Shown here: piece after piece, positions 14,648 to 57,392 of the stretch
Numbering within the stretch: position 1 is the stretch's first letter
Layout of the letters: every line of letters starts with the position of its first letter
Translations under genes and position numbers: made by a program
Origin: a candidate division WOR-3 bacterium
GTDB lineage: Bacteria > Hydrothermota > UBA3072 > B12-G15
NCBI GenBank assembly: GCA_965649055.1
Contig: CBFGJG010000003.1
Location: 22,998 to 86,997, forward strand
DNA length: 64,000 nucleotides
Direction of reading: 5' to 3'
Notes under the pieces: model-generated
Database searches by the model: none
What the model was told of the DNA's origin: nothing
The model's input: only the letters and a program-made list of their open reading frames with translations

Positions 14648-14676
14648 TTGACATTTTTTTTATTTTTGATTATTTT
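14648..14676 (+). promoter_or_regulatory. Sigma-70-type promoter (TTGACA-17-TATTTT) about 9 nt before the ATG at 14686
   Basis: TTGACA at 14648-14653 and an A/T-rich -10 17 nt downstream. No Shine-Dalgarno sequence precedes the ATG, suggesting a leaderless or very short-leader mRNA. Confidence 0.4.
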
Positions 14677-14685
14677 TTAATTAAT

Positions 14686-15066
14686 ATGATTATTTTATTT
14701 ATAGCACAGTTAGGAATGATACAGTCTAATATAAGTATAAACATCCAGGTTTGGGGTGAGGTTAGGAATCCAGGTATATTCAATGTCCCACCAAACATTA
14801 ATGTTATTGAGGCAATATCATTTGCAGGTGGTCCACTTAATACATCTGATCTTTCTAATGTAAAGATAGTTAGTTTGAACGGGAACATAAAGTTCATAAA
14901 TATTTCTTCTTATCTAAAAGGAGGAAAGGTCGACATTCCAATGATCTCACCCGGAGATATAGTTATCGTTCCAAGATCTGCCCTTTCAAATCTCGTCGAG
15001 TTTGTTAGATTTATGAGTATCGTAATAGGTGCTGCAGGAATTATCTTTTCCATAGTGGGGAGATAA
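14686..15066 (+). CDS. Polysaccharide export protein fragment (Wza-like Poly_export/PES domain only)
   Basis: GEVRNPGIFNVPPNINVIEAISFAGGPLNTSDLSNVKIVSL...ISPGDIVIVP matches the Wza N-terminal polysaccharide-export domain. At 126 aa it lacks the SLBB repeats and outer-membrane helix of full-length Wza. Confidence 0.6.
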   Translation: MIILFIAQLGMIQSNISINIQVWGEVRNPGIFNVPPNINVIEAISFAGGPLNTSDLSNVKIVSLNGNIKFINISSYLKGGKVDIPMISPGDIVIVPRSALSNLVEFVRFMSIVIGAAGIIFSIVGR

Positions 15067-22206: not shown

Positions 22207-22212
22207 AATTTA

Positions 22213-22240
22213 ATTATATTTTCTATATTTTTTATGTCAA
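22213..22240 (-). promoter_or_regulatory. Sigma-70 promoter (TTGACA-16-TATAAT) placed 6 nt before the histidine-kinase ATG; leaderless transcript predicted
   Basis: On the minus strand the sequence reads cTTGACAtaaaaaatatagaaaaTATAATtaaattATG. The -35 overlaps the truD stop codon. Confidence 0.55.
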
Positions 22241-23699: not shown

Positions 23700-23788
23700 A
23701 ATATTAATTTATAAAAAAAAATTAATGTGTCAAATAAATTTTCACTTTATCCTTGACATAAATTTTTATTCTTATAAATTTTACTAAA

Positions 23789-24283
23789 ATGGAAAAAGAA
23801 AAAAATAAACCTCTTTTTATTGCAGATGGTGTTAAGATATTTGGAGATGTCCGTTTTGGAAAAAATGTGAATATATGGTATAATGCAGTATTAAGAGGTG
23901 ATATAACATACATAGATATTGGTGATTATACAAATATTCAGGATAATTGTGTTATTCACGTTGATTATGATATGCCAGCAATAATAGGGTCTTATGTTAC
24001 TGTTGGTCATAGTGCAATCATTCATGGTGCAAAGATTTCATCAAATACGCTCATTGGTATGGGTTCAATAATCTTAAGCGGTGCAGAAATAGGTGAAGGT
24101 TCAATTATTGCAGCTGGTGCAGTGGTGAAAGAAAAGGAGAAGATACCACCTTTCTCACTTGTTGCAGGTGTTCCGGGAAAGATTATAAAGACACTTCCTG
24201 ATGATGTTATTGAAAAGATCAGGAAATCTGCAGAAGAATATGTTAAACTTGCAATTACACATCTAAATAATGACAAAAAATAA
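23789..24283 (+). CDS. Gamma-class carbonic anhydrase family / hexapeptide-repeat protein
   Basis: Left-handed beta-helix hexapeptide repeats plus the His motifs (CVIHVD...GHSAIIHGAKI) typical of gamma-CA/YrdA/PaaY proteins. A TTGACA-16-TAAATT element ends 8 nt before the ATG. Confidence 0.8.
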   Translation: MEKEKNKPLFIADGVKIFGDVRFGKNVNIWYNAVLRGDITYIDIGDYTNIQDNCVIHVDYDMPAIIGSYVTVGHSAIIHGAKISSNTLIGMGSIILSGAEIGEGSIIAAGAVVKEKEKIPPFSLVAGVPGKIIKTLPDDVIEKIRKSAEEYVKLAITHLNNDKK

Positions 24284-38700: not shown

Positions 38701-39424
38701 AAATCTTTATAGATTAAACACAAGAGAATCAGCAGATCCAAACAATTGGACACTTACTAAATTATTTGGACCAACAAGGCCAATTACTGCTGCACCTGCT
38801 GCAACACTTGATGAACAGGGTAAACTCTGGATTTACTTTGGCACTGGTAAATATTTTTCAAGCGATGATGTTTCAGATAAAACTACAGAATATTTTTATG
38901 GTATTAAAGACACTGATACATCTTCAACTGTTTCAATTTCTGAACTTCAAAATGTTACAAATGTTAAAGTTTATGGACCTGATTCTGTTACTGGATTATC
39001 GGGTGTTAAAAATTTCAATGAATTGGAAACGTTCTTAAGAGGGAAGAAAGGATGGTACAGGGTCCTGTCATTTAGTGGTGAAAAATCATTCACAAGACCT
39101 TACGTAATTGGTGGAACACTTGTATACACGACTTTCACCCCAACCGGTGATATATGTGAGGCGACCGGCAAGGGAAGACTTTATGCATTATATTATTACA
39201 CTGGAACTGCCTATAAAAACCCTATTCTTCCCAAAAACCCTATTACAGGTGAACATGAGGTTTTAGCCGACTTAGGGCCAGGTCTTCCAGCTGAGCCAAG
39301 TTTGTATGTTGGTCCTACAGATGAAAAGATATATATACAGATTAGTGGTGCTGTAAAACAGATAGAAAATATAAACCTTGTAATGGACCCAAGGGGTGGT
39401 CTTATAATGTGGAAAAGGAGGTAA
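35768..39424 (+). CDS. pilY1: PilY1/PilC-like type IV pilus tip adhesin with N-terminal vWA (MIDAS) domain and C-terminal beta-propeller
   Basis: 1218 aa with RBS GGGAGG and a signal peptide. MIDAS motif LIFLLDISLSM. The C-terminal region (WIYFGTGKYFSSDD, LYALYYYTG) resembles the PilY1 beta-propeller domain. It follows the fimU-pilV-pilW-pilX order. Confidence 0.7.
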   Translation: MKKFILILLLFSLSSYTQTMPCDAPPTIMRAVKPNLIFLLDISLSMYARAYWFGSGDPRTNYNPNMRYYGYFHPDSIYVYSDPQWVTTGQGANGDYRVTTTNFDFKNKRILGNILNWATMSRWDIMKKVLVGGEGNPTSDYVNEKLQSRGGYTSGDDGWPTPLITLVSDSTVQYRFDRTSQGATSIVVDSFYNGKWKKNFTASLTKIDVSTLSTDYRIGILAKIGDQDLDRKWDGGNQIPRFAVMVYTEDSKENKILKLIKDNGFSANDSGQNAAELITGIKEQPIGYATNVGDAILQAIHYFASEKDHFGNYNKFPDDPYLRKVIGNIYDTLWCAHSFVVLLGDGQANRDQIVTTTDYSGTHRIPVGYRGDIQSLCSYNNNLTGYDTDSWDDVNSKKDCSDDGYYTETDHRADDYAYYAHVTDLRVDGGTRTPSNLKGEQKLTFYTVFCFGKGANLFKSIAKWGGFNDRNLDKLPQRDEYDENNDGVPDKYYEAETGDSLESSIRKIIYEVMATVSSGTATAIVATGTRGEGVGTYAMYYPRKFYGQTAIDWIGMLHGVWVDPFGNLREETEGNLQMHLKNDFVIRMEYDTASGETKVLRYRDINGDNKNLQFVDQVNYDNLKTIFDLGKYLLDVSSNIRNIWTFINNTEIEFKAANKNIIKPYLDVSTDGEADTLIRYIRGENDFGFRNRKLPDNRLYKLGDIMFSSPLVVGPPMERYDLLYGDTSYMSYFRKYNFDEKRRSVVYAGANDGMLHCVNIGLYYTDSGVVAGHLDPAGHTPGKELWAYIPFNLLPHLKWLKEKEYCHVYYVDLKPYPTDAKIFTADNTHINGWGTVLISGFRMGGTKYTLPGGTILSSGYACIDVTNPLNPDVLWEWKIPEYTYSTSYPNVIKVQNNWYMIVGTGPTQFNGYSSINAKLYVLNLSDGSVVKTFTLSEPRSAIGDIISVDLDLDYNVDLVYFGTYYDAVGNIAPADFRGNLYRLNTRESADPNNWTLTKLFGPTRPITAAPAATLDEQGKLWIYFGTGKYFSSDDVSDKTTEYFYGIKDTDTSSTVSISELQNVTNVKVYGPDSVTGLSGVKNFNELETFLRGKKGWYRVLSFSGEKSFTRPYVIGGTLVYTTFTPTGDICEATGKGRLYALYYYTGTAYKNPILPKNPITGEHEVLADLGPGLPAEPSLYVGPTDEKIYIQISGAVKQIENINLVMDPRGGLIMWKRR

Positions 39425-41795: not shown

Positions 41796-42721
41796 AAAAA
41801 ATATCTTTAATAGTGAACTTTTTTTCTTTTAAGAAGATGCAGAATACTGTCCTTGAAATTGAGAAAAGACTCAAAAACTCCGGATTTAACACTGATTTAA
41901 AGGTTACTGATTATCCTTTTCACGCATATTATATTGCAAGGGATTCTGTGTTGAATGGTTCTTCCCTGATTGTATCGTTAGGTGGAGATGGAACAATAAA
42001 TGAGGTGATAAATGGTGTTTTATCTATTAAAGAGCAAGAATTACCGGAAATAGGTTTTATACCGCTCGGGACAGGTGTTGATTTTGTGAAAACAGTTGGT
42101 ATATCAAGGAAAATGGAAGAGGCACTTGATACAATAATAAATGGTGATGTTATATATTCAGATGTCGGGAGGGTTGTCCTAAATGAAAATGAGAAAGTTT
42201 ATACAAGATATTTTATAAATGTTCTTGATGCAGGGCTTGGTGGTAGTGTTGTTAGAATAGCCAGGAGATTACCCAAATCACTTGGTGGATATCCTGTGTT
42301 CCTTATTTCAAGTCTTTTGGGAATATTAACATTTAAACCATTCAAGGTAAAGATATTCATTGATGACGAATTTGTAGATGAAGGAAAAATAACCATTATA
42401 GGTGCAGCTAATGGAAGATATTTTGGGGGCGGTATGCATATTGCACCTATGGCAAAGATAGACGATGGAATCTTTGAATTCCTTTATGTTAAAGATACAA
42501 ATATATACACATTCATAAAAGAGGTGTTATTACCTGTTTATGACGCAAATCATCTTAAATATAAAAAACTTTACCATTTTAGGGGTAAAAAACTTAAGAT
42601 TTTAGGTGAAAATCATTTTCTTTTTGAGATGGACGGTGAACCTCTAAAGGCAAGGGAGATAGAATTAAGTATAGTTCAAAATAGAATTAAACTGAAGATT
42701 CCAAGAAAAAATCACTATTGA
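41792..42721 (+). CDS. Diacylglycerol-kinase catalytic-domain lipid kinase (YegS/BmrU family)
   Basis: VSLGGDGTINEVINGV contains the DAGK_cat GGDGT motif. 309 aa, with an ATGA overlap to the upstream gene. Confidence 0.75.
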   Translation: MKKISLIVNFFSFKKMQNTVLEIEKRLKNSGFNTDLKVTDYPFHAYYIARDSVLNGSSLIVSLGGDGTINEVINGVLSIKEQELPEIGFIPLGTGVDFVKTVGISRKMEEALDTIINGDVIYSDVGRVVLNENEKVYTRYFINVLDAGLGGSVVRIARRLPKSLGGYPVFLISSLLGILTFKPFKVKIFIDDEFVDEGKITIIGAANGRYFGGGMHIAPMAKIDDGIFEFLYVKDTNIYTFIKEVLLPVYDANHLKYKKLYHFRGKKLKILGENHFLFEMDGEPLKAREIELSIVQNRIKLKIPRKNHY

Positions 42722-42760
42722 CATTTTACATTAAGAACATATAATTAACAAAAATGTTAA
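42718..42760 (+). promoter_or_regulatory. Promoter (TTGACA-16-TATAAT) followed by palindrome TTAACA-AAAA-TGTTAA upstream of the AbiEi-like gene
   Basis: TTGACA at 42718-42723 overlaps the DAGK stop, and TATAAT is at 42740-42745. A perfect 6-bp inverted repeat at 42745-42760 overlaps the predicted transcription start. Confidence 0.45.
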
Positions 42761-42766
42761 TTTTTT

Positions 42767-43333
42767 ATGCTTAATGATAAACTTTTCTTTTCTGTTGAAG
42801 ATATTTCAAAAGAAAGAAGGATTTCAATAGGTTCTTCTAGAGTTTATCTTTCGAGGAAAATTAAGAAAGGCGATTTTTTAAGAGTTAAAAGGGATTTTTA
42901 TATAAAAACAGAAAGATTTTCAAATATGGGACTAGAAGAATTTTTTTATATTTCGAATTTTCTCCAATCTCCTTCTTATATTTCTCTTATGACTGCTTTA
43001 AATTTTTATGATATGACGTTACAGGTTCCAAGAATTATAGAAAATATATGTATTTACAGGACTAAAATATATACTGTAAAAGATTTTGAATTCAAGTATT
43101 ACAAGATAAACAGAAAACTCTTTTTTGGATATATAAGGGAAGGAAGTTTTTTTATTGCGACAAAGGAAAAAGCATTTTTTGATATGCTTTATCTTGCATC
43201 TTTTGGAAAATATCAATTTTCTATTTCTGAGATAAATTTAGATAGGTTTGACAAAAAAATATTAATTAATTTAGAAAAAAAATATCCAGAAAAGACAAAG
43301 CAATTTTTTAGAAAAATATGGAAGAACTTATAA
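42767..43333 (+). CDS. AbiEi-like antitoxin / transcriptional regulator (type IV TA, abortive-infection family)
   Basis: 188 aa immediately upstream of, and overlapping by 16 nt, a DUF1814/AbiEii-type nucleotidyltransferase. The N-terminal region has a winged-helix-like character. The assignment rests mainly on gene-pair context. Confidence 0.45.
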   Translation: MLNDKLFFSVEDISKERRISIGSSRVYLSRKIKKGDFLRVKRDFYIKTERFSNMGLEEFFYISNFLQSPSYISLMTALNFYDMTLQVPRIIENICIYRTKIYTVKDFEFKYYKINRKLFFGYIREGSFFIATKEKAFFDMLYLASFGKYQFSISEINLDRFDKKILINLEKKYPEKTKQFFRKIWKNL

Positions 43334-43989
43334 AACAGGAAAAATTTGAGATAGAAGTTCTTGAAAAAATGAAGAATAAAGGACATTTAAAAAACCTTAT
43401 ATTTTGTGGTGGAACAATGTTAAGACTTTGTTATGGTTTAAACAGGTATTCTTTAGACCTTGATTTCTGGCTTTTAAAAAAAATTGAAGTAAATATTTTT
43501 TTTGATGGAATTAAAGACTTTTTCGCTTCTGAATATATATTAACAGATGCATCAAATAAATTTCATACTCTTCTTTTTGAGATCAAATCAAAAAAGTATC
43601 CCAAAAAGTTAAAGATAGAAATAAGAAAAGAAGAGAAAAATATAAAAACGGAAAAAATGATTGCATTCAGTAAACACTCTAATATTCAAGTAATAGTGGA
43701 TGTTCCCACATTACAAGAAATGCTAAATGAAAAAATAATAACATTTATTGAAAGGAAGGAAATCAGAGATGCCTTTGATATTGAATTTATAACAAGAAGA
43801 GGTATTCTACTTTCAGTTACAAAGGAGAATGCAAAAAAAATACTCGAAACTATAGAATCACTTAAAAAAGTTGATTATAATGTAAAATTAGGTTCAATAC
43901 TTGAAAAAGGAGAAAGAGAATACTACAAGAAACAGAATTTTAATTTTTTAAAAACGATTTTGTATTCTATTATAAATAGAGAAGATTAA
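43318..43989 (+). CDS. AbiEii/AbiGii-family nucleotidyltransferase toxin (DUF1814)
   Basis: LIFCGGTMLRLCYGLNRYSLDLDFWL matches the AbiEii N-terminal nucleotidyltransferase motif (GGTAL...R-x-S-x-D-L-D-F). 223 aa. Confidence 0.6.
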   Translation: MEELIKQEKFEIEVLEKMKNKGHLKNLIFCGGTMLRLCYGLNRYSLDLDFWLLKKIEVNIFFDGIKDFFASEYILTDASNKFHTLLFEIKSKKYPKKLKIEIRKEEKNIKTEKMIAFSKHSNIQVIVDVPTLQEMLNEKIITFIERKEIRDAFDIEFITRRGILLSVTKENAKKILETIESLKKVDYNVKLGSILEKGEREYYKKQNFNFLKTILYSIINRED

Positions 43990-43993
43990 AATA

Positions 43994-44021
43994 TTGACAA
44001 ATTTCATTGAATTCTTATAAT
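43994..44021 (+). promoter_or_regulatory. Consensus sigma-70 promoter TTGACA-16-TATAAT 8 nt before the leuS ATG (leaderless leuS)
   Basis: TTGACA at 43994-43999 and TATAAT at 44016-44021. The ATG is at 44030 with no SD sequence. Confidence 0.6.
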
Positions 44022-44029
44022 GTATAAAA

Positions 44030-46456
44030 ATGGAAAAAGAATATAATTTTAAAGAGATAGAAAAAATAGCAAGGGAAAAATGGGAAAGACTTTCTTTATA
44101 TAAGACTCCCGAAAATCCAAGGAAGAAGTTTTATCTCCTTGAGATGTTTCTTTATCCTTCGGGTGATATACATATGGGACATTGCAGAAATTATGTAATA
44201 GGTGATCTGATTTACAGATATAAAAGGATGAATGGATATGATATCCTTCATCCATTCGGATGGGATGCATTTGGGTTACCTGCTGAACAGGCAGCAATTA
44301 AAAGGGGTGCATCACCAAAAAAATGGGTTTATAATAACATAAATACATCTAAGAACACTTTAAAATTACTGAATATAAGTTATGACTGGGATAGGGAAGT
44401 TCTGACAGCAGAACCTTCTTATTATAAATGGAATCAGTGGATTTTCCTAAGATTGTATGAGAAAGGATTAGCATATAGAAAAAAATCCTATGTGAACTGG
44501 TGCCCGAGTTGTAAAACTGTTTTAGCTAATGAACAGGTTATCGGTGGAAGATGCTGGAGATGTGATTCAATCATTATAAAGAAAGAAATGGAACAATGGT
44601 ATTTCAAGATAACCGAATACGCAGAAAGATTGCTTCAAGGAATAGAAAGGTTGAAAGATTGGCCTGAAAACATAAAAACAATGCAGAAAAACTGGATAGG
44701 GAAGAGTATAGGAACAGAGATTGAATTTGATACAATAGATGGCGAGACTCTAAAAGTTTTCACAACAAGGGCTGATACACTTTTTGGTGTCACATTTATA
44801 TCAGTTGCACCTGAACATCCTTTTGCAAATGGAATAGATAAAAAAGAAGTTAAAGAATATATTGATAAGGCTCTGCTTATGACAGAGATAGATAGACAGA
44901 GTCAGGAAAGGGAAAAAACAGGCGTGTTTTCAGGTGTTTATGCAATCCATCCTTTGACAGGAGAAAAAGTCCCTGTTTTTGTAGCAGACTATGTGCTTTC
45001 AAGTTATGGAACTGGTGTTGTTATGGGTGTTCCTGCTCATGACCAGAGGGATTTTGAATTTGCTAAGAAATACAATCTACCGATAAAGGTGGTAATAAGC
45101 CCTGATGGAAAAGATTATGCTCCAGATATACTTGATAAGGCTTATGAGGAATATGGGATACTTGTAAATTCTTTTGAATTTAATGGTATGGATTCAAAAA
45201 CTGCAATTGATAGAATAAACGATAAACTCGAAAGACTGAATAAAGGAAGAAAGAAAATTACATATAAATTAAGGGACTGGCTTGTGTCAAGGCAGAGATA
45301 CTGGGGAACCCCTATACCTATGATACATTGCCCTGAATGCGGGATTGTCCCTGTTCCGGAAAATGAATTACCTGTTGTATTACCACCTGAAGATAAAGTG
45401 AATTTTATTCCACAGGGCAGGTCACCACTTGAGGACTGTTCTGAATTTTATAATGTGAAATGCCCTAAATGTGGTGGTGATGCACACAGGGACCCTGATA
45501 CAATGGATACATTTGTTGATTCATCCTGGTATCATTTAAGATACTTTGACCCAAAAAATGATAAGGAGATATTTAAAAGGGGAGAAGCGGATAAATGGTT
45601 CCCTATAGATTTATACATAGGTGGTGCTGAACATGCAACAGGACACCTTATATATTTCAGGTTCATAACTAAATTCCTTTACGATTTAGGTTACCTTAAA
45701 GATGATGAACCTGCTATAAGATTATTCAATCAGGGAATGGTATGTGATGAGAAAGGTCAGGTTATGTCAAAATCAAAAGGTAATACAGTAAGCCCAATTG
45801 ATATGATGAATAAGATAGGGCTTGATGCTACAAGGATAGCAGTTATATTTGCTGCACCACCTGAGAAGGATATTTTATGGTCAACAAAAGACCTTGCAGG
45901 TTCCGAAAGATTCTTAAAGAGGATTTATAACCATTTTACACCTTATATTTCAAGAAAGAACCCATTACCTGATAAAGATGATATTTTATATAAGAAGATA
46001 GAAAGGACAAAGAAATTCATAACAGAACACATTGAGAATTTTCTTTTTAATACTGCCGTAGCAGGTTTGATGGAAATGCTCAATGACATAACTGCCTATG
46101 AAGATAAAGGGAATGATACTTATGCTTATGTAATACAGGAATTCACAAAAATTCTCGCTCCTTTTGCCCCACATATATCTGAATATCTATATTCATTCTT
46201 TGGTAAGAAGGAAAGTATATTTTTTGAAGAATGGCCAAAGTATGACGAGGATGCGCTTTTTGACGAAGTGGTAACTGTCATAATACAGGTAAATGGTAAA
46301 TTAAGGGGAAAGGTTGAGGCAAAAAAAGGTTCAGATGAAAAGGATATCTTTGATAAGGCTATAAAGGATGAAAATATAAGAAAATTTATTGATGGAAAAG
46401 ATGTACTAAAAAAAATTTATATTCAGGATAAGATTCTTAATATTGTGGTGAAATAA
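44030..46456 (+). CDS. leuS: Leucine--tRNA ligase
   Basis: HIGH motif (HMGHCRNY), KMSKS motif (VMSKSKGNT) and the CP1 editing and Zn-knuckle regions (CPSCKT...CWRC, CPKCGG). 808 aa. Confidence 0.95.
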   Translation: MEKEYNFKEIEKIAREKWERLSLYKTPENPRKKFYLLEMFLYPSGDIHMGHCRNYVIGDLIYRYKRMNGYDILHPFGWDAFGLPAEQAAIKRGASPKKWVYNNINTSKNTLKLLNISYDWDREVLTAEPSYYKWNQWIFLRLYEKGLAYRKKSYVNWCPSCKTVLANEQVIGGRCWRCDSIIIKKEMEQWYFKITEYAERLLQGIERLKDWPENIKTMQKNWIGKSIGTEIEFDTIDGETLKVFTTRADTLFGVTFISVAPEHPFANGIDKKEVKEYIDKALLMTEIDRQSQEREKTGVFSGVYAIHPLTGEKVPVFVADYVLSSYGTGVVMGVPAHDQRDFEFAKKYNLPIKVVISPDGKDYAPDILDKAYEEYGILVNSFEFNGMDSKTAIDRINDKLERLNKGRKKITYKLRDWLVSRQRYWGTPIPMIHCPECGIVPVPENELPVVLPPEDKVNFIPQGRSPLEDCSEFYNVKCPKCGGDAHRDPDTMDTFVDSSWYHLRYFDPKNDKEIFKRGEADKWFPIDLYIGGAEHATGHLIYFRFITKFLYDLGYLKDDEPAIRLFNQGMVCDEKGQVMSKSKGNTVSPIDMMNKIGLDATRIAVIFAAPPEKDILWSTKDLAGSERFLKRIYNHFTPYISRKNPLPDKDDILYKKIERTKKFITEHIENFLFNTAVAGLMEMLNDITAYEDKGNDTYAYVIQEFTKILAPFAPHISEYLYSFFGKKESIFFEEWPKYDEDALFDEVVTVIIQVNGKLRGKVEAKKGSDEKDIFDKAIKDENIRKFIDGKDVLKKIYIQDKILNIVVK

Positions 46457-46460: not shown

Positions 46461-48155
46461 TTATTCTTTTGATATCTCATAAACTATAAAACGAGAATTC
46501 TTATATACTTCTTTAAAATTCAAACATTTTTCACTTTTCCACCTTACAATATAAATCCTTTCTGGTTTACTCTCCCAATTAAATATCTCCTGAGAAATTT
46601 TCCGAAAATCTTCTTCATAAAGGTCGTTGAAATCTTGATAATCAACAAGACCATCTTTGTAAAATATTTTTTTTTGTTTCAACTCTTGTAAATCCCTATT
46701 GTATCCTAATTTTTTCATCCTTCTGAACCACTCATATCCAAATTCAGGATTAAAATTTAACAAAGTCCCATCATACCAATCACCATATATTGTTCTTTCA
46801 GATTGAATCCTAAAACCATATTGGGTAGGAGGAACTATAAAAACATCATTTATCCTTGTATTTTTTTTAGCCCATTCTTGAGCGTCAATCCATGCTTTTT
46901 TATTTGGAGTGTCACTGTATTTAGTAATTATGAAAATTTTCAAAAAAATAACTACTAAAAGCATCATTAATAAGATAAGATTATTTAGATATTTTTCTTT
47001 TATATTTAAATTTCTATATTGATAAATAACTTTTGTAAATGTAATAATAATAAATACAGATAGAATTACTTCAAATATCGCGAAGCCGTAAAGTATAAAA
47101 AAAGCGACTATTAATGTTAAGAATTTATAAATCAATTTTTTCCCTTCTTTTGTTTCTTCATAAAAATAATGCACAAAATATATTACACCAAATATATATA
47201 TATAAATAAAGCTTCTAAAAACTTGTAAATTCAAAATTAAAGTCAAAGGTAAAAATTCAGAGAAGATAAAACCTATTAAACATAATGAAAATATTACAGA
47301 TGAAAAAATTACTATCATTCTATGTATTCTGAACTCAGGTTTATTTCTCCAAGTGATAAAGTATCCTGTTATAAAAAGAAAATTTTGAATGTATAAATCT
47401 TTTTTCCAGGACAATGGAAATAAATGTTCAGGTGAACGAAGCCTCAGTAAAAGAACCCAATTTTTATCCGGAATAAAATTCAAGCTTTCTGGAGAATAAA
47501 CAATTCTCCATATAATAATTGGTGATGAGATAATAAAGAAAATTGTAAGAGATATTATAAATTTTTTTATACCTATTTCCTTTATCTCAAAAAATGTAGC
47601 AACTATAATCATTATAATCACATATAGGGAACTTAATGGATGGATAAGAAAGCCAATACCTAAAAATATGTATGATTTAATATAATCTCTTGCTAAAAAA
47701 TAATAAATTGAGAAAATTAGAAAAGGTGCAACAACAAATCTTGTGATAACCATATTTTCTTGCAAAAGAATATTTGTGAATGTAAATCTATTAAAAAGAA
47801 ATATAAAAAGTGAGAGATATGTGGCAGTTTCATTTTTTGTAATTATCCTTGTGATAAGATATAATGCAAAAAATCTGAAATATATGGTTAAAATATAAAT
47901 TAAAGTGAAAAGTGCTTTTATATCAATATGGGTAAATTTTAAAATGCATGCTACTATATGCCATAATATAGTATAGTAATATTTCATTTCACCAATAATA
48001 TAATCGGAGGGATAAAGGCTTTTACACATTATCTTATTTATAAATGGAATTACAATATTATGGTCATATATATAATACTTTTGAGAATTGAATATAACAA
48101 TTTCTAAAATAGTAAAGAGTAAAACTATGATATGTGTTTTATATTTTTTGAACAT
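46461..48155 (-). CDS. Polytopic membrane protein, unknown family (copy 1 of duplicated module)
   Basis: 564 aa with more than 10 predicted transmembrane segments and a C-terminal soluble domain (WIDAQEWAKKNTRINDVFIVPP...NFNPEFGYEWFRRMKKLGY). Clear paralog of the gene at 51075..52730. A leaderless-type promoter (TTGACA-16-TATACT) ends 9 nt before its ATG. Confidence 0.5.
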   Translation of the reverse strand: MFKKYKTHIIVLLFTILEIVIFNSQKYYIYDHNIVIPFINKIMCKSLYPSDYIIGEMKYYYTILWHIVACILKFTHIDIKALFTLIYILTIYFRFFALYLITRIITKNETATYLSLFIFLFNRFTFTNILLQENMVITRFVVAPFLIFSIYYFLARDYIKSYIFLGIGFLIHPLSSLYVIIMIIVATFFEIKEIGIKKFIISLTIFFIISSPIIIWRIVYSPESLNFIPDKNWVLLLRLRSPEHLFPLSWKKDLYIQNFLFITGYFITWRNKPEFRIHRMIVIFSSVIFSLCLIGFIFSEFLPLTLILNLQVFRSFIYIYIFGVIYFVHYFYEETKEGKKLIYKFLTLIVAFFILYGFAIFEVILSVFIIITFTKVIYQYRNLNIKEKYLNNLILLMMLLVVIFLKIFIITKYSDTPNKKAWIDAQEWAKKNTRINDVFIVPPTQYGFRIQSERTIYGDWYDGTLLNFNPEFGYEWFRRMKKLGYNRDLQELKQKKIFYKDGLVDYQDFNDLYEEDFRKISQEIFNWESKPERIYIVRWKSEKCLNFKEVYKNSRFIVYEISKE

Positions 48156-48320
48156 ATTTTTTAGTATATTTTAATAATAATATTTGTCAAGTTTTTGGCG
48201 TCATGTGTTAACATTTGACATTTTCGTATATTTAGTTTCAATTGAATTAAGAAATATTGAATTGTGATAGAAAAAAGAAAATGATTTGACATAAAGTAAA
48301 ATATGCTTAATAATAAAAAT

Positions 48321-50249
48321 ATGTCTAACAATTGTTTAGGCAAAGTTGCATTAAGATTGAAAAAAAACTTTGTTTTAATTCTTTTGTTCTTATCGTTTAT
48401 ACTCATATATTTTTCATACATACGTGCAGATCCACCTGCTAAAAAAATATGGTGTTATGGTGTATATTTGACAGACGAAGGATTTAGAGTCATATCTGCA
48501 AGAAACCGAGTTTTATTTGGTATGCCTGACAGAACAACAAGTTTACTAAATAAAAATATTACATTTTTTCCATTACCACATTTAATCTATCTTGCAACCT
48601 TTAAAATCATTGGTGTTGGATTTTTACAGGCAAGATTAGTATCAATATTTTTCGGATTATTAAGCCTTATTGTCTTTTTCTTTATAACAAAACGGCTTTT
48701 TTCAAGAAATGTTTCTTTTTTCTGTTTATATCTCTTAGGAATAAATCATATATTTATTTTTTACTCTAAACTTGCACTTGCAGAGTCAATTCTCGTTTTT
48801 TTTACATTATTAATTTTTTATCTCTTAATCTCAAGCGATAAAAACTTTATATTTTTGTTTTCTGGATTTCTTTGTGGTCTTTTAATCTTTATAAAAACTC
48901 AAAGTATCCCATTTATTTTTTCAATCTTTTTTTGCATTTTGATTGATTTTAAAAAGAATCTTAGATTATTTTTTATTAGAATACTATTTTTTCTTTTAGG
49001 ATTTATTGGAATAATTATTGTTTCTTTTTTAATTATGTTTATCACGAAAAGCACCGAATTATTTATTAGAGGTGCTTCATCCGAAGTTTTTTTAAGACTA
49101 ACGATATTCACAAAAGAAATAGTTAAGAATTTTCTTGATTTTCCTCACACTAATATTTATTTTCATTCCCCAATACAATCATATTTGGGATTATTATTAA
49201 CCTTTGGTATTTTGCTAAAAATTATAAAAAAGATGGAAATTGAATTCCCTGAAAGATTTATAGCATTTTTTACTATATTAAATTGTATTATGATATCTAT
49301 ATTTTTATATCAACCTATTAGATATTTTATAATTATGATACCTTTTTTTATAATTGGCTTTGGAATTCTAATCACCCAAAGATATAAATTTTTTATAGAA
49401 AATTTATTCAAAAAAATTTGTTTATTTATATTATCTGGTTATTTATCTATTTTTTCAATATTGCTTATTATCTCATTAATTGACATAAACACAATAGATT
49501 CTAAAAATACAATTTCAGCTCTTTTAATTTCGATCGTAATGGTTATAATAATTTTTAGTCTAAAAATAAATTTCTGGAAAAACTTTAATGCGATGAAGAT
49601 ATTTCAATTCATTTTTGTTTCATTATTTTTTATTTTCTTTATATCACATATTATTCTTAGAGATGCAGAATATATACTAATCGGCAAAATGAAAATAAGT
49701 CCATCTCTATATTTTTATGTCTTCATTTTTTTTATCCCATTATTTATATGTCTATCAATAATCCCCTTTTTTCTGTTTCTTTACACCGATAACGAAAAAA
49801 AAGAAGATTATGAAAAGATATCAAGATTAGGCTATTTTATAATTGGGATTTTATTGATTTCTTCATTTATAAACATCTATCATTATCTTTACTGGTTAAA
49901 AACAAAGGAATATACTTTATATAATACTTCAAAAGATATAGTAAAAATAACAAGTGAAGAGTGTGTGATATTTGGAAGGGCTGCTCCGACTTTATCTATT
50001 GAAAATGAAATAATGGCTTCAAGCAGTATCCATTTTTTACCTGAATTCATTTTATTTTTTAAAGAGAAAAATATTCCAATATATTTACTATTCTCAAACA
50101 GGGAAGAATATGGAATGTTTATAAAAACCTATAATAATCTCCTATCTTTATATGGAGTAAAAAATTATATACTTCTTAAAGAATATAAAGTTTTAGAAAA
50201 TTACGATTATATTTCAAATCTTTTACTTTTTTATGTAAGTTTTCGTTAA
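48321..50249 (+). CDS. GT-C-fold membrane glycosyltransferase-like protein (ArnT/PMT, GT39/GT83-like), copy 1
   Basis: Polytopic with the N-terminal DE-containing loop (GVYLTDEGFRV) typical of GT-C enzymes. The start was chosen at the ATG at 48321 directly downstream of TTGACA-17-AATAAT. An alternative ATG lies at 48303. Confidence 0.45.
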   Translation: MSNNCLGKVALRLKKNFVLILLFLSFILIYFSYIRADPPAKKIWCYGVYLTDEGFRVISARNRVLFGMPDRTTSLLNKNITFFPLPHLIYLATFKIIGVGFLQARLVSIFFGLLSLIVFFFITKRLFSRNVSFFCLYLLGINHIFIFYSKLALAESILVFFTLLIFYLLISSDKNFIFLFSGFLCGLLIFIKTQSIPFIFSIFFCILIDFKKNLRLFFIRILFFLLGFIGIIIVSFLIMFITKSTELFIRGASSEVFLRLTIFTKEIVKNFLDFPHTNIYFHSPIQSYLGLLLTFGILLKIIKKMEIEFPERFIAFFTILNCIMISIFLYQPIRYFIIMIPFFIIGFGILITQRYKFFIENLFKKICLFILSGYLSIFSILLIISLIDINTIDSKNTISALLISIVMVIIIFSLKINFWKNFNAMKIFQFIFVSLFFIFFISHIILRDAEYILIGKMKISPSLYFYVFIFFIPLFICLSIIPFFLFLYTDNEKKEDYEKISRLGYFIIGILLISSFINIYHYLYWLKTKEYTLYNTSKDIVKITSEECVIFGRAAPTLSIENEIMASSSIHFLPEFILFFKEKNIPIYLLFSNREEYGMFIKTYNNLLSLYGVKNYILLKEYKVLENYDYISNLLLFYVSFR

Positions 50250-50293
50250 AAAGGGTATGTTGACAAAATTTTAACTGATTATAGAATAAATAT

Positions 50294-51085
50294 ATGAAAA
50301 TTAATAAATGTTTTCTATTATTCGTTTTTTACATTTCTTTATTTGCAGATGCTGAATTTTCATTACTTTTTAAGTCTCAAATTGGGAATACTATATCAAG
50401 AACCAAGGTAAGATGCTATTTGAATAATCAAAACTTGCGTTTTGATTTCATTTTTCCTTATTTTAGGAATGAAAGTGATATTGACCGGAGTAAAAAAGAT
50501 TTTGTAAATGACCAAGTCTACTGGATATACAACTTTAAAACTTCTAATTTTTTTATTGTAAACCCCAAAAAGCACATCTATTATGAATTTAAAGAAAATA
50601 TAATTACTCCACTATTAAACGAAAATAAAGAAATTAACCATATTAGAAATATAAAAATTGTAGTTAAGAAGCTAAAGGATGAAATTGTTGAAAACTTTTT
50701 ATGTAACCATTACTACATAAGTTATACATATGAAATGCCTTTGGGTCCTCATCAAATGGATAAAAAAATATTAATAGAAGAGAAAAAAGAAATATGGGTT
50801 ACAAATAACTTAATATTCAAATATATTCCTTTAACTTTAAAAAAAGCATTCATTTTATCCGGAATTGAACAGATAGATAGTATAATTTTTAAAAAAATAG
50901 ATACTGAAGAATTAGGATTTGTTTTGAAACTTTTAAACTATAAATTAACAAGAGAAAACAATGAAATAAAACAGTATACAAGTGAATTTAAGATAGCAAA
51001 TATTGAGGAACGGCACAATATACCTGAAGACATTTTCATAATACCCCAAAATTATAAGAAAATAAATATAGAATTTAGAAATTAG
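50294..51085 (+). CDS. Secreted hypothetical protein
   Basis: Signal peptide MKINKCFLLFVFYISLFADA. 263 aa. TTGACA-16-TAGAAT ends 6 nt before the ATG. The 3' end overlaps the convergent gene by 11 nt. Confidence 0.45.
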   Translation: MKINKCFLLFVFYISLFADAEFSLLFKSQIGNTISRTKVRCYLNNQNLRFDFIFPYFRNESDIDRSKKDFVNDQVYWIYNFKTSNFFIVNPKKHIYYEFKENIITPLLNENKEINHIRNIKIVVKKLKDEIVENFLCNHYYISYTYEMPLGPHQMDKKILIEEKKEIWVTNNLIFKYIPLTLKKAFILSGIEQIDSIIFKKIDTEELGFVLKLLNYKLTRENNEIKQYTSEFKIANIEERHNIPEDIFIIPQNYKKINIEFRN

Positions 51086-52730
51086 ATTTTTTATTTTTTA
51101 TCTCAAATATTGTAAATAAATTATTTTTATAGACTTCTCTGAATCCTAAACTCCGTCCTTTATTCACTACAATATATACTGCTTCTGGATTATTTTTCCA
51201 TTTGAAAATCTCCTCCGATATTTTTAGGAATCCTTCTTCATTAAGTTCCTTATAGTCTTGAACCATATTATCTTTATCTTCAAATCCAAGATTTTTCATC
51301 CTCCTTATCCATTCATAACCAAAATAAGGGTTAAAATTTAGCATTGTTCCATCTTTCCAATCAGTGTATATACTTCTTTCTGAATAAACCCTGAAACCCC
51401 ATAGATGCGGTGGAACGATAAAGACATCATTTATATTTGTGTTTTTCCTTGCCCATACCTGGACATCTTTCCAGTCTTTCCACCAGAATTCTTTTTCTGA
51501 ATCAGTGTTTACAATCAATGAATAGAAAGAAACTATTATTACAAAAGATAGTATAATTAGATTTGTTTTTCTCAATAATAATTCTTTTCTTTTCTTTATC
51601 TCACTTAGTATAACGAAAGCAGATAGGGTAATCATAAGCAAGAAACCTATCTCCCAATTTTTGCTATCGAATAGTAAAAGAAAGATTAAAAATAAATTAG
51701 CTATTTTTCCAAGATAATTTTTTTCTTTATAGATGGCATTGTAATAGAAATTACTTACCATTATGATACTAAAATAAATTAAATAAATAAAACTCCTGTA
51801 TAATTGAATCATAAGAATAGGGGTTAGAGGGATAAATTCAGTAAAAATTGTTCCGGTAATACAAAATATTAATATTGAAATAAAAAATATTAATAAATTT
51901 CTATAAATTCTCATTTCTGGTTTATATTTCAGGCTTAATGAAAATGCAATTATAATGAAAAAACCCTGAATAAATAATCTTTTATCCCATGAGAGAGGAA
52001 AGATATGGTGTGATGACCTTAATCTAAGAAGTTCTAACCAGTTATTATCAGGGAAAAACGGGATATTGACTTTATTTAAAAACCAGAATATAAAAATTGG
52101 TGAAGATATTATTGTAAAAACAAGAATAGACATAATAAACTTTTTTAAGCCAATATTCTTTATCTCAAAAAGAGAAGCAACAAAAATTATAGAAACAACA
52201 TAAAAGGCACTCATCGGATGTATTAAAAAACCAACACCTGAAAGGATGTATGATAAATAGTATTCTTTCTTTAAAAAATAATAGATTGAAAATATTAGTA
52301 TTGGGAGAACAGGTGTCCTGTTATAAAAAGATGTTGTTATTGTTTCTACAAGGGCAAAAGATTGTTTTGAAAACAGAAGTAAGAAAAGACTTAAATAAGC
52401 AATATCATCCTTATCAGTAATAATTTTTGCAATATGATAAAAACCAAGGAAAAAGAAATAGATTGAAATAAAATAAAATATGAACAGTAAAATTTCTAAT
52501 TTTATATGTGTTATCTTACATAAATAACCAATTATATACCACAATAGGGTAGGGTAGTGTTTCATCTGTTCAATGAAATAATCAGATTGATAAAGATTAG
52601 GATTTATAATCTTTTTTACAAATGGTAGAAGAACAGAATAGTCAACACCGAATTCATATCTGTTTATTGTTGAGACCGAAAGGATAACAATGATCAGTAT
52701 AAAAATTCTGTAATCGATATTCTTTTTCAT
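51075..52730 (-). CDS. Polytopic membrane protein, unknown family (copy 2 of duplicated module)
   Basis: Paralog of the gene at 46461..48155: LYQSDYFIEQMKHYPTLLW versus LYPSDYIIGEMKYYYTILW, and a conserved C-terminal NDVFIVPP...NFNPYFGYEWIRRMKNLGF. The start is set at the ATG at 52730, 6 nt after TTGACA-17-TATATT. The ORF track's TTG start at 52790 is rejected. Confidence 0.5.
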   Translation of the reverse strand: MKKNIDYRIFILIIVILSVSTINRYEFGVDYSVLLPFVKKIINPNLYQSDYFIEQMKHYPTLLWYIIGYLCKITHIKLEILLFIFYFISIYFFFLGFYHIAKIITDKDDIAYLSLFLLLFSKQSFALVETITTSFYNRTPVLPILIFSIYYFLKKEYYLSYILSGVGFLIHPMSAFYVVSIIFVASLFEIKNIGLKKFIMSILVFTIISSPIFIFWFLNKVNIPFFPDNNWLELLRLRSSHHIFPLSWDKRLFIQGFFIIIAFSLSLKYKPEMRIYRNLLIFFISILIFCITGTIFTEFIPLTPILMIQLYRSFIYLIYFSIIMVSNFYYNAIYKEKNYLGKIANLFLIFLLLFDSKNWEIGFLLMITLSAFVILSEIKKRKELLLRKTNLIILSFVIIVSFYSLIVNTDSEKEFWWKDWKDVQVWARKNTNINDVFIVPPHLWGFRVYSERSIYTDWKDGTMLNFNPYFGYEWIRRMKNLGFEDKDNMVQDYKELNEEGFLKISEEIFKWKNNPEAVYIVVNKGRSLGFREVYKNNLFTIFEIKNKKSNF

Positions 52731-52822
52731 TTTCTTAATATACAAGTCTAAATAAAAATTGTCAAAGATTTTGAGCAGGCTATATTTCAATTGACAAACT
52801 CATTTATATGTTTTATGATAAA

Positions 52823-54751
52823 AATATGAAGAAAAATAATTTAGAAAGAATATTATGGTTTGTTTTATTATCTTTGATTTTTTGTCTTGTCCTATCTTTA
52901 TCATTACGAAAAATAACAGAGATAGATATTGGTTTCCATCTTAGGGGTGGAAAATGGATGCTTGAAAACAAAGCATTCCACAAAAATGATGTATTTACTT
53001 ATACTGTGAATAATAATGAATATATAGCAATGTACTGGCTTTTCCAGATTGTAATCTATTTGATTTACAAAATTTCAAGTTACGAAGGTATTGTTATTTT
53101 TAATGCTATTTTAATCCAGCTTATTTATTTCCTTATTCTTCTAAGGATGTTTAGAAATAAAACGCATTCCGGGATTATTGCGATTCTTCTATTTATTTCT
53201 GTTTTTCCCTTTGAATTAAGATTTACAGTTCGTCCTGAGGTATTCACATACATTTTCTTGTCATTAACATTGTTCATTCTTGAGGAATACTATTATAGGA
53301 AAAAAAACTATCTTTTTATTATCCCTTTTATAAACCTGCTCTGGGTTAATTTTCATGGATTATACATATTAAGCTGGGGAGTGATACTATCATACTTCTT
53401 AGGTATTCTAATCCATAACAAAAAGATTGATAAATCTCTATTAAAATATGGTTTAATTTCAATATTTATTTGCTTGGTTAACCCTTATTTCATTAAAGGT
53501 ATAACTTTCCCATTTTATCTTTTTACAAGACTACAGAGTGGAAATGTATTTAAGAGTGTAATATCTGAATTCATATCACCATGGGCTATAAGGAAAAAAG
53601 AGATTGCACCTTTTGTCCAGCAGGGGCAAGTTTATGTTTATTACTTTTTAAGTTTGTTCACATTACTTATCACATTAATAACAATAAAAAAAAGAAAGTT
53701 TCATGAAATTGCAATTATTTCAATCTTTTTTATACTCTCGTCTATGGCTATAAGGAATATTCCTTTATTTCTTGTTGCTTCAATACCATACTCCGGAATC
53801 TTTCTTAATGAAATATTAGTAAACTTAAAAAATCTAAAGAGATTCAAAAGGATAAGTTATAAATACTTCACTTATTTTATCTCTATTCCTGCTTCAATAA
53901 TAGTGATTGTTTTTATATTAAGGGTGTTAACAAATGATTATTATTTTTCAAAAAGGACAAACGTCCATTTTGGTATCGGGCTTGAAGAAAACCTTCATCC
54001 TGTAAAAGCAGCTCAATTTCTCTGTGATAACAATCTTTATGGAAGAATCTTGAATGATTTAAATTCAGGTAGCTGGCTTATATGGAAAGGACCTCAGAAG
54101 GTTTTTATAGATGGAAGACTTGAGGTAATGAGGGAAAAATTCTTCAAAGAATACAGGATTAGTTTTGATTACAAAGATGGTCTCAAGATATTAATTGAAA
54201 AATACAAGCCTGATATTATATTATTTAACTATGATGTCTCATTAAAATGGTTTCTGCAATTAAAGAATTTTAACGATTTCAGAATGGTTTACTGTGATAT
54301 AAATACTGCGATATTTGTGAGGAAAGGATACAGAGATGATCTAAAAGATGTCAATATAATGGAGATTGTTTATAAAATGGGTCTGGATACAATAATAACC
54401 GAAAAAGAAGAATGGGATATTTTAAAAATAAAGAGGAAAAGCAAATTTGTTCATTTTTTTGAATCACTTTATAAAAAACAGGTTTATCCATATGAATTAA
54501 TAAACCTTGGTGTTTTTGCATATCAATCAAACAATTTTAAAGCCTCAATAATCCTGCATCTTGAATTTCTTAAAAAGACAGGAGGCAGGTATTATGAGAC
54601 ATATTTCAATCTTGGTGCGATGTATCTGAGAAATAAAGAATTTTCTAAAAGTCTTTATTGTTATAGGAAAACACTCGAAATGGAACCTAAGAACAAAATG
54701 GCTCAGGATAGAATAAACGAATTGAACAGGATATTGAAAATAAACAAATAG
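52823..54751 (+). CDS. GT-C-like membrane protein with C-terminal TPR repeats (TMTC/PMT-like), copy 2
   Basis: Polytopic N-terminal ~500 aa paralogous in architecture to the gene at 48321..50249, plus C-terminal TPR-like repeats (YFNLGAMYLRNKEFSKSLYCYRKTLEMEPKN). The ATG at 52823 follows TTGACA-17-TATGAT. The upstream promoter sequence is near-identical to that of copy 1. Confidence 0.45.
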   Translation, partial: NMKKNNLERILWFVLLSLIFCLVLSLSLRKITEIDIGFHLRGGKWMLENKAFHKNDVFTYTVNNNEYIAMYWLFQIVIYLIYKISSYEGIVIFNAILIQLIYFLILLRMFRNKTHSGIIAILLFISVFPFELRFTVRPEVFTYIFLSLTLFILEEYYYRKKNYLFIIPFINLLWVNFHGLYILSWGVILSYFLGILIHNKKIDKSLLKYGLISIFICLVNPYFIKGITFPFYLFTRLQSGNVFKSVISEFISPWAIRKKEIAPFVQQGQVYVYYFLSLFTLLITLITIKKRKFHEIAIISIFFILSSMAIRNIPLFLVASIPYSGIFLNEILVNLKNLKRFKRISYKYFTYFISIPASIIVIVFILRVLTNDYYFSKRTNVHFGIGLEENLHPVKAAQFLCDNNLYGRILNDLNSGSWLIWKGPQKVFIDGRLEVMREKFFKEYRISFDYKDGLKILIEKYKPDIILFNYDVSLKWFLQLKNFNDFRMVYCDINTAIFVRKGYRDDLKDVNIMEIVYKMGLDTIITEKEEWDILKIKRKSKFVHFFESLYKKQVYPYELINLGVFAYQSNNFKASIILHLEFLKKTGGRYYETYFNLGAMYLRNKEFSKSLYCYRKTLEMEPKNKMAQDRINELNRILKINK

Positions 54752-56300: not shown

Positions 56301-57392
56301 TTACTTAATACAAATAATTTTAATAATTTTACTTTTGGTTTTTATAAAATAGATTCCTTCCTTTTTGGGTTCCCAGGTTGTAGGAGTTTTCAAAAATTTG
56401 ACTAATTTACCGGTTATATCAAAAATCAGTATATATGAATTGGGTTCCTCTTCTAATTTAAAGGTCTTTCCTATTATTGTTGATGGAAGGTTTCTTTCTT
56501 CATATATACCTGTTCCGGTATATCTGACTTCAACTGTATCCATTGTTGGATGACCGTAAATTGAGTCACCAAAACAATAATGGAAATTCCAGTCTGTTGA
56601 TTCATTCTTCAGGTATCTATTGAAAAAAGCAGTCATATGCCTGCGTGAAATTCTTTGTTGTTCTTCCCGTGTTATTGTAGCCGTCCCACCATTTTCCCAG
56701 AAATAAGAATAGTCCATAAAAAATCCATGGTTAGCACCATTTATAACCGCAAAAGTTCCAGGTTCTGGTGCATTTGTCCAATATGCGCTTCTGACATCAT
56801 TCCAGGGCGCAATATTATCAACTGATCCAGCTATTATCATTTTAGGCACATCGAGATGTTCAGAATGAGTTTGAGGGGTTGTCTGCGGGCTCGCAAGTGA
56901 AACAACAGCTTTCAATGTATCTGGTAATTTAAAAGTATCAGCAGCAAGCAAAGCAAGACCACCACCCATACTATGCCCAGCAAACCCCCAGTTGAATTTA
57001 TCGAGTTTATGATAAAATAAATCGTTCACGCTATCATTCAGACTGGAGATAAACAAAGCTGCATCAACCATTGACCTCGCCCTCGTATAATGTTCAGGCG
57101 TCGGAAAAGGGTTTGAAATTGTGGGTAAAACAACCACATATCCCCAGGAAGCGAGATGTTTTGCATAACTATAATATCTATCAATTCCCATCTGGAAACC
57201 ATGACCAAAAACAATTATAGGACAGGGAACTGCATTTGTATCCACTCCGGTCCCACTTGAAGGATAATACACCCTTGAATTAGACATAGTTTCGTAAATC
57301 CCGGGGATATTTAAAACACGATAAGATACATTTTGGAACGGACCAGTTGTATCATAATCTGGAAAAAGATCTATGATTATAAACAACAGCAT
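56301..57392 (-). CDS. Cutinase/PETase-like alpha/beta-hydrolase (dienelactone-hydrolase fold polyesterase) with T9SS C-terminal sorting domain
   Basis: RBS GGAGG 5 nt upstream. YYPSSG...PCPIIVFGHGF, the nucleophile elbow GHSMGGG, the acid motif GSVDNIAPW and the His motif INGANHGF parallel the conserved blocks of type II PET hydrolases and actinobacterial cutinases. The C-terminal GIYFIKTKSKIIKIICIK is CTD-like. Confidence 0.6.
   Translation of the reverse strand: MLLFIIIDLFPDYDTTGPFQNVSYRVLNIPGIYETMSNSRVYYPSSGTGVDTNAVPCPIIVFGHGFQMGIDRYYSYAKHLASWGYVVVLPTISNPFPTPEHYTRARSMVDAALFISSLNDSVNDLFYHKLDKFNWGFAGHSMGGGLALLAADTFKLPDTLKAVVSLASPQTTPQTHSEHLDVPKMIIAGSVDNIAPWNDVRSAYWTNAPEPGTFAVINGANHGFFMDYSYFWENGGTATITREEQQRISRRHMTAFFNRYLKNESTDWNFHYCFGDSIYGHPTMDTVEVRYTGTGIYEERNLPSTIIGKTFKLEEEPNSYILIFDITGKLVKFLKTPTTWEPKKEGIYFIKTKSKIIKIICIK

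Follow-up and report, generated by a model that had tools for sequence, protein, structure and literature searches.

The question raised by positions 46461-54751 of the DNA analysed here, an 8 kb stretch within a 64 kb window (the whole piece of candidate division WOR-3 sequence), is whether two head-to-head pairs of membrane-protein genes represent a duplicated two-gene glycosylation machine or an ordinary set of envelope-glycosylation genes. An original prediction made from the letters alone had described two copies of one architecture, each pairing a minus-strand polytopic membrane protein with a divergently transcribed, glycosyltransferase C (GT-C)-like membrane protein. The five open reading frames (ORFs) on which it was based, including the 263-aa one between the copies, were all recovered and are termed A1, B1, S, A2 and B2 below. 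Both A1/B1 and A2/B2 are arranged head-to-head, the B partner being in each case a polytopic membrane protein of about 640 aa, and the G+C content of the five-gene region is 23-27%, against a range of 23-38% across the window. The best homologues come mostly from candidate division WOR-3.

46461..48155, minus strand: A1, 564 aa, DUF6798 family, the extra copy
48321..50249, plus strand: B1, 642 aa from the leaderless ATG, or 648 aa from the ATG at 48303 (ORF 48303-50249)
50294..51085, plus strand: S, 263 aa, between B1 and A2
51075..52730, minus strand: A2, 551 aa from the leaderless ATG at 52730, or 571 aa from a TTG (ORF 51075-52790), DUF6798 family
52826..54751, plus strand: B2, 641 aa from the leaderless ATG (ORF 52808-54751)

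Folds, paralogy, the non-homology of B1 and B2, promoters, synteny and family distribution were computed, the loci of other genomes being labelled L001, L008, L092 and so forth. Together, these analyses suggest, with a probability of about two in three, that the region is a small islet in which four genes, each transcribed independently of the others, code for GT-C-fold integral-membrane glycosyltransferases and a fifth for a secreted protein. The four predicted GT-C proteins fall into three sequence-unrelated families, namely DUF6798 (A1 and A2), a PMT_2/ArnT-like family (B1), and an unmodelled family combining a GT-C domain with tetratricopeptide repeats (TPRs; B2), and the locus is in this sense an ordinary, uncharacterised envelope-glycosylation islet rather than a duplicated two-gene machine.

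Predicted folds of the membrane proteins

The sole Pfam match of A1 and A2 is DUF6798 (PF20604; E 2.7e-14 for A2), which is also matched by all 26 aligned homologues. The Pfam model covers 61 residues of the C-terminal domain, carries neither a function nor a fold annotation, and leaves the GT-C membrane domain unmodelled. Searches of NCBIfam gave no match for A1 or A2 (the scan of all five proteins returned only one sub-threshold TPR match, in B2), a search of PDB sequences with an A-family profile brought up nothing of relevance, and no paper mentioning DUF6798 was found in the literature searched, in keeping with the earlier description of the minus-strand family as functionally uncharacterised. 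The block which had been quoted for that family, NDVFIVPP...NFNP(E/Y)FGYEW(F/I)RRMK, is present in the alignment of A1 and A2. The AlphaFold2 model of A1, built with 26 homologues (predicted local distance difference test (pLDDT) 87, predicted template modelling score (pTM) 0.89), comprises about 13 transmembrane (TM) helices and, at the C-terminus, an alpha/beta domain on the periplasmic side. In Foldseek searches with this model, full-length STT3, PglB and ArnT ranked first at probability 1.00. Structural match figures for A1 were highest for ALG12 (14.5) and ArnT (14.3), followed by ALG9 (13.6), DPY19 and PIG-M (13.4 each), STT3B (13.3), AftD and AglB (12.7 each), Pmt4 (12.6), AftA (12.5), PglB (12.2) and the C-terminal globular domain of AglB (8.6). 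On the strength of this model, the DUF6798 proteins A1 and A2 are predicted to be GT-C-fold glycosyltransferases, an assignment which follows directly from structure prediction and appears to be undocumented in the literature searched. The idea that the minus-strand protein is a non-glycosyltransferase partner of a GT-C enzyme is not supported by the same model, A1 having a GT-C fold itself.

The catalytic acid of GT-C enzymes is carried by the first loop after TM1. In the A family, D51 (within YPxDY) is invariant in 26 sequences and lies in this long first extracytoplasmic loop (EL1), which joins TM1 (residues 2-22) to the following TM helix. Later loops contain the further invariant residues H172, R240, E300 and R314, and conservation is also strong in the C-terminal domain. 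The family is large and widespread: a DUF6798 profile search of 1.84 billion cluster representatives returned 6,723 matches at E<=1e-3 and 1,185 at E<=1e-30. Genome matches were found in WOR-3, Chitinophagales, Bacteroidia, Chloroflexota, Saccharibacteria, Doudnabacteria and Oscillatoria as well as in Gammaproteobacteria, Verrucomicrobiota, Planctomycetota, Acidobacteriota, Poribacteria and Gemmatimonadota.

The two B proteins differ from the A family and from each other. B1 matches the Pfam families PMT_2 (E 2.7e-8; 34.6 bits against a cutoff of 26.1) and PMT (E 2.7e-5), both above threshold, and possesses a DE motif, LTDEGF, after TM1 (D58/E59); its orthologue in L008, 51% identical, keeps YLTDEGFRVISAR. 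A search of PDB sequences with B1 found nothing, and B1 is, as judged from its sequence, a member of PMT_2 and a putative ArnT-like GT-C membrane glycosyltransferase. B2 is composed, from N- to C-terminus, of a GT-C-fold membrane domain, a periplasmic alpha/beta domain and about three TPRs (at about residues 540-640), the latter confirming what had been noticed from the letters. It combines a GT-C core with an acidic residue in EL1, D34, which is invariant and accompanied by H38 (DxDxGFH) after TM1. A PDB profile search with B2 returned TPR proteins only. The B2 family is also large, with at least 571 matches in WOR-3 and Bacteroidota, and its membrane domain has no Pfam model; relatives, such as those at L089 8001-9926 and L091 8001-9947, are named in databases only as 'tetratricopeptide repeat protein'. 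The description of both partners as ArnT/PMT-like GT-C proteins thus stands for B1, by its PMT_2 score, and for B2 as regards the fold, but not as regards PMT_2, which was matched by none of 39 members of the B2 family. S has an N-terminus resembling a signal peptide (...SLFADA followed by EF, as read by eye) and no match in Pfam or NCBIfam. Its homologues amount to a single 77% match in a database of 5.8 billion proteins and a 42% positional orthologue in L008, making S a lineage-restricted, near-orphan secreted protein. The S and A2 genes overlap at their 3' ends by 11 nt.

By analogy, the four proteins may work like ArnT, PMT or oligosaccharyltransferase (OST)-type GT-C enzymes, each comparison having its limits. 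ArnT is the GT83 enzyme which transfers L-Ara4N from undecaprenyl-phosphate to lipid A. A1, A2 and B2 lack PMT_2 sequence or profile similarity (a match was found in one of 26 A members and, as stated, in none of the B2 members). Lipid A, the ArnT acceptor, cannot be the general acceptor of DUF6798 proteins because the family occurs in phyla generally regarded as devoid of lipopolysaccharide (LPS), namely Saccharibacteria, Doudnabacteria and Chloroflexota. STT3, PglB and AglB (GT66) are alike in fold and domain layout, yet sequence identity is only 9-15% and their WWDYG motif is not conserved, the A family having (Y/F)GDW(K/Y)DG(T/C) and B2 having GSWLIW in its place. Pfam STT3 was matched by none of the 26 A-family members and did not occur among the first 25 of the 30 families listed for B2, and membership of A and B2 in the canonical OST group was rejected for want of WWDYG. 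TMTC1-4 (GT105) and other GT-C+TPR proteins, together with the PMT protein O-mannosyltransferases (GT39), offer another comparison: in B2, a GT-C domain is followed by TPRs, but B2 matched only TPR models and not Pfam PMT, PMT_2 or TMTC-specific ones, has an additional periplasmic alpha/beta domain, and carries only about three TPRs.

Extent and age of the duplication

The view that two copies of the same architecture are present holds for gene order, protein size and the paralogy of the A proteins. The A1-A2 alignment spans both proteins in full at 43% identity (E 2e-134). B1 and B2, on the other hand, show no sequence similarity (BLASTP E = 1), and hhalign comparisons among the A, B1 and B2 families gave probabilities below 1% (0.3% for B1 and B2), i.e., no relationship. 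At the DNA level, homology between the two halves is confined to 46461-48288 against 51088-52862 (61% identity), which corresponds to gene A plus about 130 bp beyond its start. Since B1 and B2 are non-homologous and DNA homology is restricted to A and the adjoining spacer, one gene was duplicated and not a module, and the expectation that both genes of copy 1 would be homologous to both genes of copy 2 fails.

In a neighbour-joining tree, A1 is sister to a group formed by A2 and its L008 orthologue (P0006) with 100% bootstrap support, which places the duplication before the divergence of these organisms. A2 is the ancestral copy, kept head-to-head with B2 in L008 and L092, and A1 an old paralogue of it; in the L008 organism, A1 has either been lost or is located elsewhere. 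It is proposed that A1 probably arose by copying of A2 together with part of its upstream spacer and by insertion between leuS and B1, which would have separated B1 from leuS. A trace of this event may be present in the spacer between A1 and B1:

48213..48218, plus strand: orphan TTGACA in the A1-B1 spacer, aligning with the -35 box of B2

Local alignment of the A1-B1 and A2-B2 spacers scored 22.5, compared with 14.9±2.4 for shuffled sequences, a value reached by 4 of 500 shuffles; on this weak evidence, the orphan box may be what is left of an A2-B2 spacer that was duplicated. Duplication within DUF6798 is not peculiar to this genome. Two full-length paralogues lie in tandem in a Bacteroidia metagenome-assembled genome (MAG; L029, 9749-13453), and several Chitinophagales MAGs possess two DUF6798 loci each (L017/L022, L019/L034 and L020/L042), indicating that paralogue expansion is common in the family.

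Promoters and gene neighbourhood

The region was scanned for sigma-70 consensus sites, with the boxes scored out of 12. The five best sites directly precede the five genes, all having a perfect TTGACA and a score of 11/12, and the distance from the end of the -10 box to the ATG is 4-9 nt for all five:

48163..48190, minus strand: A1 promoter, TTGACA-N16-TATACT; ATG at 48155, 7 nt on
48286..48314, plus strand: B1 promoter, TTGACA-N17-AATAAT; ATG at 48321, 6 nt on
50260..50287, plus strand: S promoter, TTGACA-N16-TAGAAT; ATG at 50294, 6 nt on
52737..52765, minus strand: A2 promoter, TTGACA-N17-TATATT; ATG at 52730, 6 nt on; same arrangement in L008
52791..52819, plus strand: B2 promoter, TTGACA-N17-TATGAT; ATG at 52826, 6 nt on

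The -35 boxes of A2 and B2 stand back to back, 25 bp apart, and the leaderless starts at 52826 and 52730 are supported because the L008 orthologues of B2 and A2 begin at the matching downstream ATGs. The back-to-back leaderless promoters of the original prediction are thus real. They are, however, the general, genome-wide style of the organism and do not point to a shared module. In the window, the pattern TTGACA-N16-18-WANNNT-N4-9-ATG has 14 matches where 1.1 would be expected, at 13 distinct sites (e.g. 43994-44032(+), 14648-14688(+), 22204-22240(-), 23753-23791(+) and 42718-42756(+)), and precedes leuS, encoding leucyl-tRNA synthetase (LeuRS), and other unrelated genes as well; in this WOR-3-like organism, the transcripts of many genes seem to lack both a 5' leader and a Shine-Dalgarno sequence. 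As to the conserved promoter-to-ATG sequences which had been taken as a further mark of duplication, those of B1 and B2 (48286-48323 and 52791-52828) are unusually alike, being identical by eye at 22 of 26 positions and sharing the string ...ATATG(C/T)TT-(A/T)AT(A/G)AT-AAAAAT-ATG; promoter similarity here is largely that of the general leaderless consensus. In L008 (2110-2160(-)) and L092 (525-562), B2 is preceded by a different sequence, TTGACA-N17-TATTAA-AATA-ATG; because the relatives' promoters read differently, the likeness of B1 and B2 arose within this genome and was not inherited. Gene conversion, copying of a promoter or shared regulation are possible explanations.

Conservation of the pairing was surveyed in 80 kept DUF6798 genome loci with flanks of up to 10 kb, Pfam scans of neighbours being run on 58 of them. 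L008, a related metagenomic contig, encodes LeuRS, B1 (51% identity), S (42%), A2 on the opposite strand (63%) and B2 (74%), with no A gene between leuS and B1. L092 encodes B2 (78%) and, divergent from it, a partial A2 orthologue (79%). The head-to-head A2-B2 pair recurs only in these two close relatives. Hidden Markov models of B1 and B2 found no such neighbour at any of the 80 loci, and PMT_2 did not rank with the 25 commonest Pfam families in 221 neighbouring ORFs at the 58 scanned loci. These neighbours, of which 106 are immediate and 115 lie at positions ±2/3, reveal no dominant partner, the counts being five each for GNAT and GT2, four each for TPR and UbiA, and three each for epimerases and aminotransferases. 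BLAST clustering of the neighbours of the 58 loci likewise found none to be conserved, the largest cluster, of short-chain dehydrogenase/reductase (SDR) epimerases, extending over eight loci. In two further cases, a complete WOR-3 genome and a 260 kb contig, the B2 homologue is surrounded by genes for a tRNA synthetase, recA and RNase Y and has neither A nor PMT_2 as a neighbour. No relationship was detected between the 164-aa gene which follows B2 in the window and the 168-aa gene which follows it in L089. The notion of a conserved cassette of A and a GT-C gene therefore did not survive the survey, there being no co-occurrence outside the immediate clade, an outcome which the original prediction had listed among its own grounds for refutation.

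A second and different association of DUF6798 with TPRs was observed at L001 7870-11701 (= L009; an unclassified bacterial MAG) and at L011 2343-5981 (a candidate division WOR-3 MAG), where genes for a UbiA-family prenyltransferase, a 315-aa TPR protein and a DUF6798 protein follow one another in that order; the UbiA protein is of a generic type (L001). DUF6798 genes are also sometimes found in polysaccharide or glycan clusters, in the company of genes for GT2, methyltransferase, epimerases, aminotransferases, Wzz, flippase, GT4, Wzy_C and GT9.

The remainder of the window contains the following features:

42767-43989: AbiEi-like antitoxin and AbiEii nucleotidyltransferase toxin, a type IV toxin-antitoxin pair just upstream of leuS
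6343-10476, minus strand: PorU-like type IX secretion system (T9SS) sortase/C25 peptidase, 1377 aa, with a C-terminal FlgD_ig; NF033707 E 6.6e-72, below the equivalog cutoff
10473-11792 and 56301-57392, minus strand: weak matches to T9SS C-terminal domains (CTDs), below the curated cutoff, one of them in a PETase-like alpha/beta hydrolase
35768-39424, plus strand: homologue of PilY1/PilC-like type IV pilus tip adhesins, 1218 aa

Small ORFs at 33.3-35.8 kb and 39.4-39.8 kb could encode minor pilins. Genes for PGM/PMM, GalT, an NDP-sugar pyrophosphorylase, a Wzz/tyrosine-kinase protein and an SLBB protein are also present, spread over tens of kb. The suggestion that the glycosyltransferases act on many T9SS cargo proteins encoded nearby was not adopted, as the window yielded only the two sub-cutoff CTD matches and a PorU-like sortase at a distance of 36 kb.

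Mechanism, alternatives and significance

As to catalytic activity, donor type and acceptor, we infer from characterised GT-C enzymes that each of the four proteins would most likely take a sugar or oligosaccharide from a polyprenyl-phosphate-linked donor at the periplasmic face and transfer it to an envelope acceptor by means of an acidic residue in EL1, i.e., D51 in A1, D58/E59 in B1 and D34 in B2. Acceptor recognition may fall, in DUF6798, to the conserved periplasmic domain at the C-terminus and, in B2, to the TPRs, which would favour a protein as acceptor or partner. The best hint at the donor used by DUF6798 comes from a groundwater Gammaproteobacteria MAG (L002 7635-11704, the same genome as L018), in which genes for a fusion of a haloacid dehalogenase (HAD)-type phosphatase and UbiA, an SDR epimerase and a DUF6798 protein follow one another in that order, DUF6798 being one gene downstream of the fusion. 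The fusion protein matches decaprenyl-phosphate phosphoribosyltransferase (DPPR synthase) of M. tuberculosis (PDB 8j8j) with an E value of 1.3e-36. The mycobacterial enzyme makes the polyprenyl-phosphate-pentose donor of the GT-C arabinofuranosyltransferases Emb and Aft. Judged by homology, L002 looks like a non-actinobacterial locus in which such a donor pathway is linked to a GT-C gene; the hint is circumstantial, and the association is rare. The likeness to the mycobacterial route, comprising Emb, AftA, AftB and AftD with the DPPR synthase Rv3806c (UbiA) as the donor enzyme, is limited in that DUF6798 lacks sequence similarity to Emb and Aft and that UbiA accounts for only 4 of the 115 ORFs at positions ±2/3 of DUF6798, is generic in L001, and was not found in the window.

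Several points weigh against the reading of the locus as an islet of active glycosyltransferases. No polyprenyl-phosphate sugar synthase, whether a GtrB/ArnC-like GT2 or a UbiA-like protein, was found in the 64 kb window by seed phmmer searches and by Pfam scans of most large ORFs, though not of all ORFs at 26-35 kb. The 15 phmmer seeds (UbiA, GT2, PAP2, SDR, Wzy, flippase, GT4, GT9, the 168-aa protein of L089 and others) matched none of the window's ORFs. D51 is matched to the catalytic Asp of ArnT or PglB by its position in the loop only, and support for co-duplication of the spacer is weak, with z about 3.

Among the alternatives, the foremost holds that A2 and B2, and perhaps A1 and B1, are coupled in this clade as sequential GT-C enzymes which act on the same acceptor and share a bidirectional promoter region, S being perhaps an accessory factor or the substrate. 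Such coupling is possible but on balance unlikely. It would account for the closely spaced, divergent promoters of A2 and B2 and the retention of this arrangement in the window, L008 and L092, for the conserved position of S in L008, and for the TPR gene found directly upstream of DUF6798 in L001/L009 and L011. Conservation of the pair is limited, however, to genomes so closely related (74-78% identity in B2) that synteny tells little, the wider families show no association, and each gene has a promoter of its own. The stronger proposal, with which this analysis began, is that a two-gene cassette of an unknown polytopic partner and a GT-C enzyme was duplicated as a unit, so that obligate A and B pairs would form one glycosylation system. 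Both A copies are indeed head-to-head with a GT-C-fold protein of similar size, the A2-B2 arrangement is kept in two relatives, and the B1 and B2 promoters look alike; but B1 and B2 are unrelated by sequence and by profile, B1 occurs without A1 in L008, pairing is absent from the wider survey and from other WOR-3 genomes encoding B2 homologues, and A has a GT-C fold itself. Duplication of a cassette is thus regarded as very improbable.

Two other identities for DUF6798 are less credible still. A Wzy/WaaL/EpsG-like polymerase or ligase would be consistent with weak matches below the Pfam threshold, namely to Wzy_C for three of the 26 members (lowest E 0.0024) and to EpsG for two of them (E 0.11), and with the presence of some homologues in clusters resembling those for O-antigen or exopolysaccharide. 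An identity of A as O-antigen polymerase or ligase was nevertheless rejected, as no Wzy_C match exceeded the threshold and the predicted structure matched GT-C enzymes instead of WaaL or Wzy. That DUF6798 is a non-catalytic GT-C-fold scaffold or lipid-binding subunit, comparable to PIG-U/GAB1 in the glycosylphosphatidylinositol (GPI) transamidase, appears just as remote, given that the EL1 Asp and charged residues of the periplasmic loops are invariant across phyla, as expected of an active site, and that the best structural matches are catalytic enzymes.

The islet of separately transcribed GT-C genes thus remains the favoured reading, and its consequences lie mainly in annotation. Two uncharacterised families, DUF6798, which is large and spans many phyla, and the GT-C+TPR family of WOR-3 and Bacteroidota, gain a testable annotation at the level of the fold as predicted periplasm-facing GT-C glycosyltransferases with a candidate catalytic Asp, and the idea of a duplicated machine is corrected to one old gene duplication among unrelated GT-C genes. 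DUF6798 is already catalogued in Pfam. At present this is a useful annotation rather than a surprising discovery. Polyprenyl-phospho-pentofuranose donor chemistry has so far been tied mainly to Actinobacteria. A bolder and improbable proposal is that DUF6798, with at least 6,700 clusters at 50% identity in diderm and monoderm phyla, would be a new, widespread GT-C glycosyltransferase family whose common acceptor is read by the highly conserved periplasmic domain and at least some of whose members use donors of this kind, that in this WOR-3 clade it would form a periplasmic (protein) glycosylation system together with B2, and that relatives of B2 could be an alternative candidate to YfhO for the O-oligosaccharyltransferase (O-OTase) of Bacteroidota. 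That enzyme was still unidentified in July 2026, the authors of a preprint favouring YfhO. Should the side leads hold, namely the linkage to a DPPR synthase and the TPR-bearing GT-C proteins conserved in the Fibrobacteres-Chlorobi-Bacteroidetes (FCB) group, they would bear on the envelope glycobiology of non-model bacteria and on the missing O-OTase of Bacteroidota.

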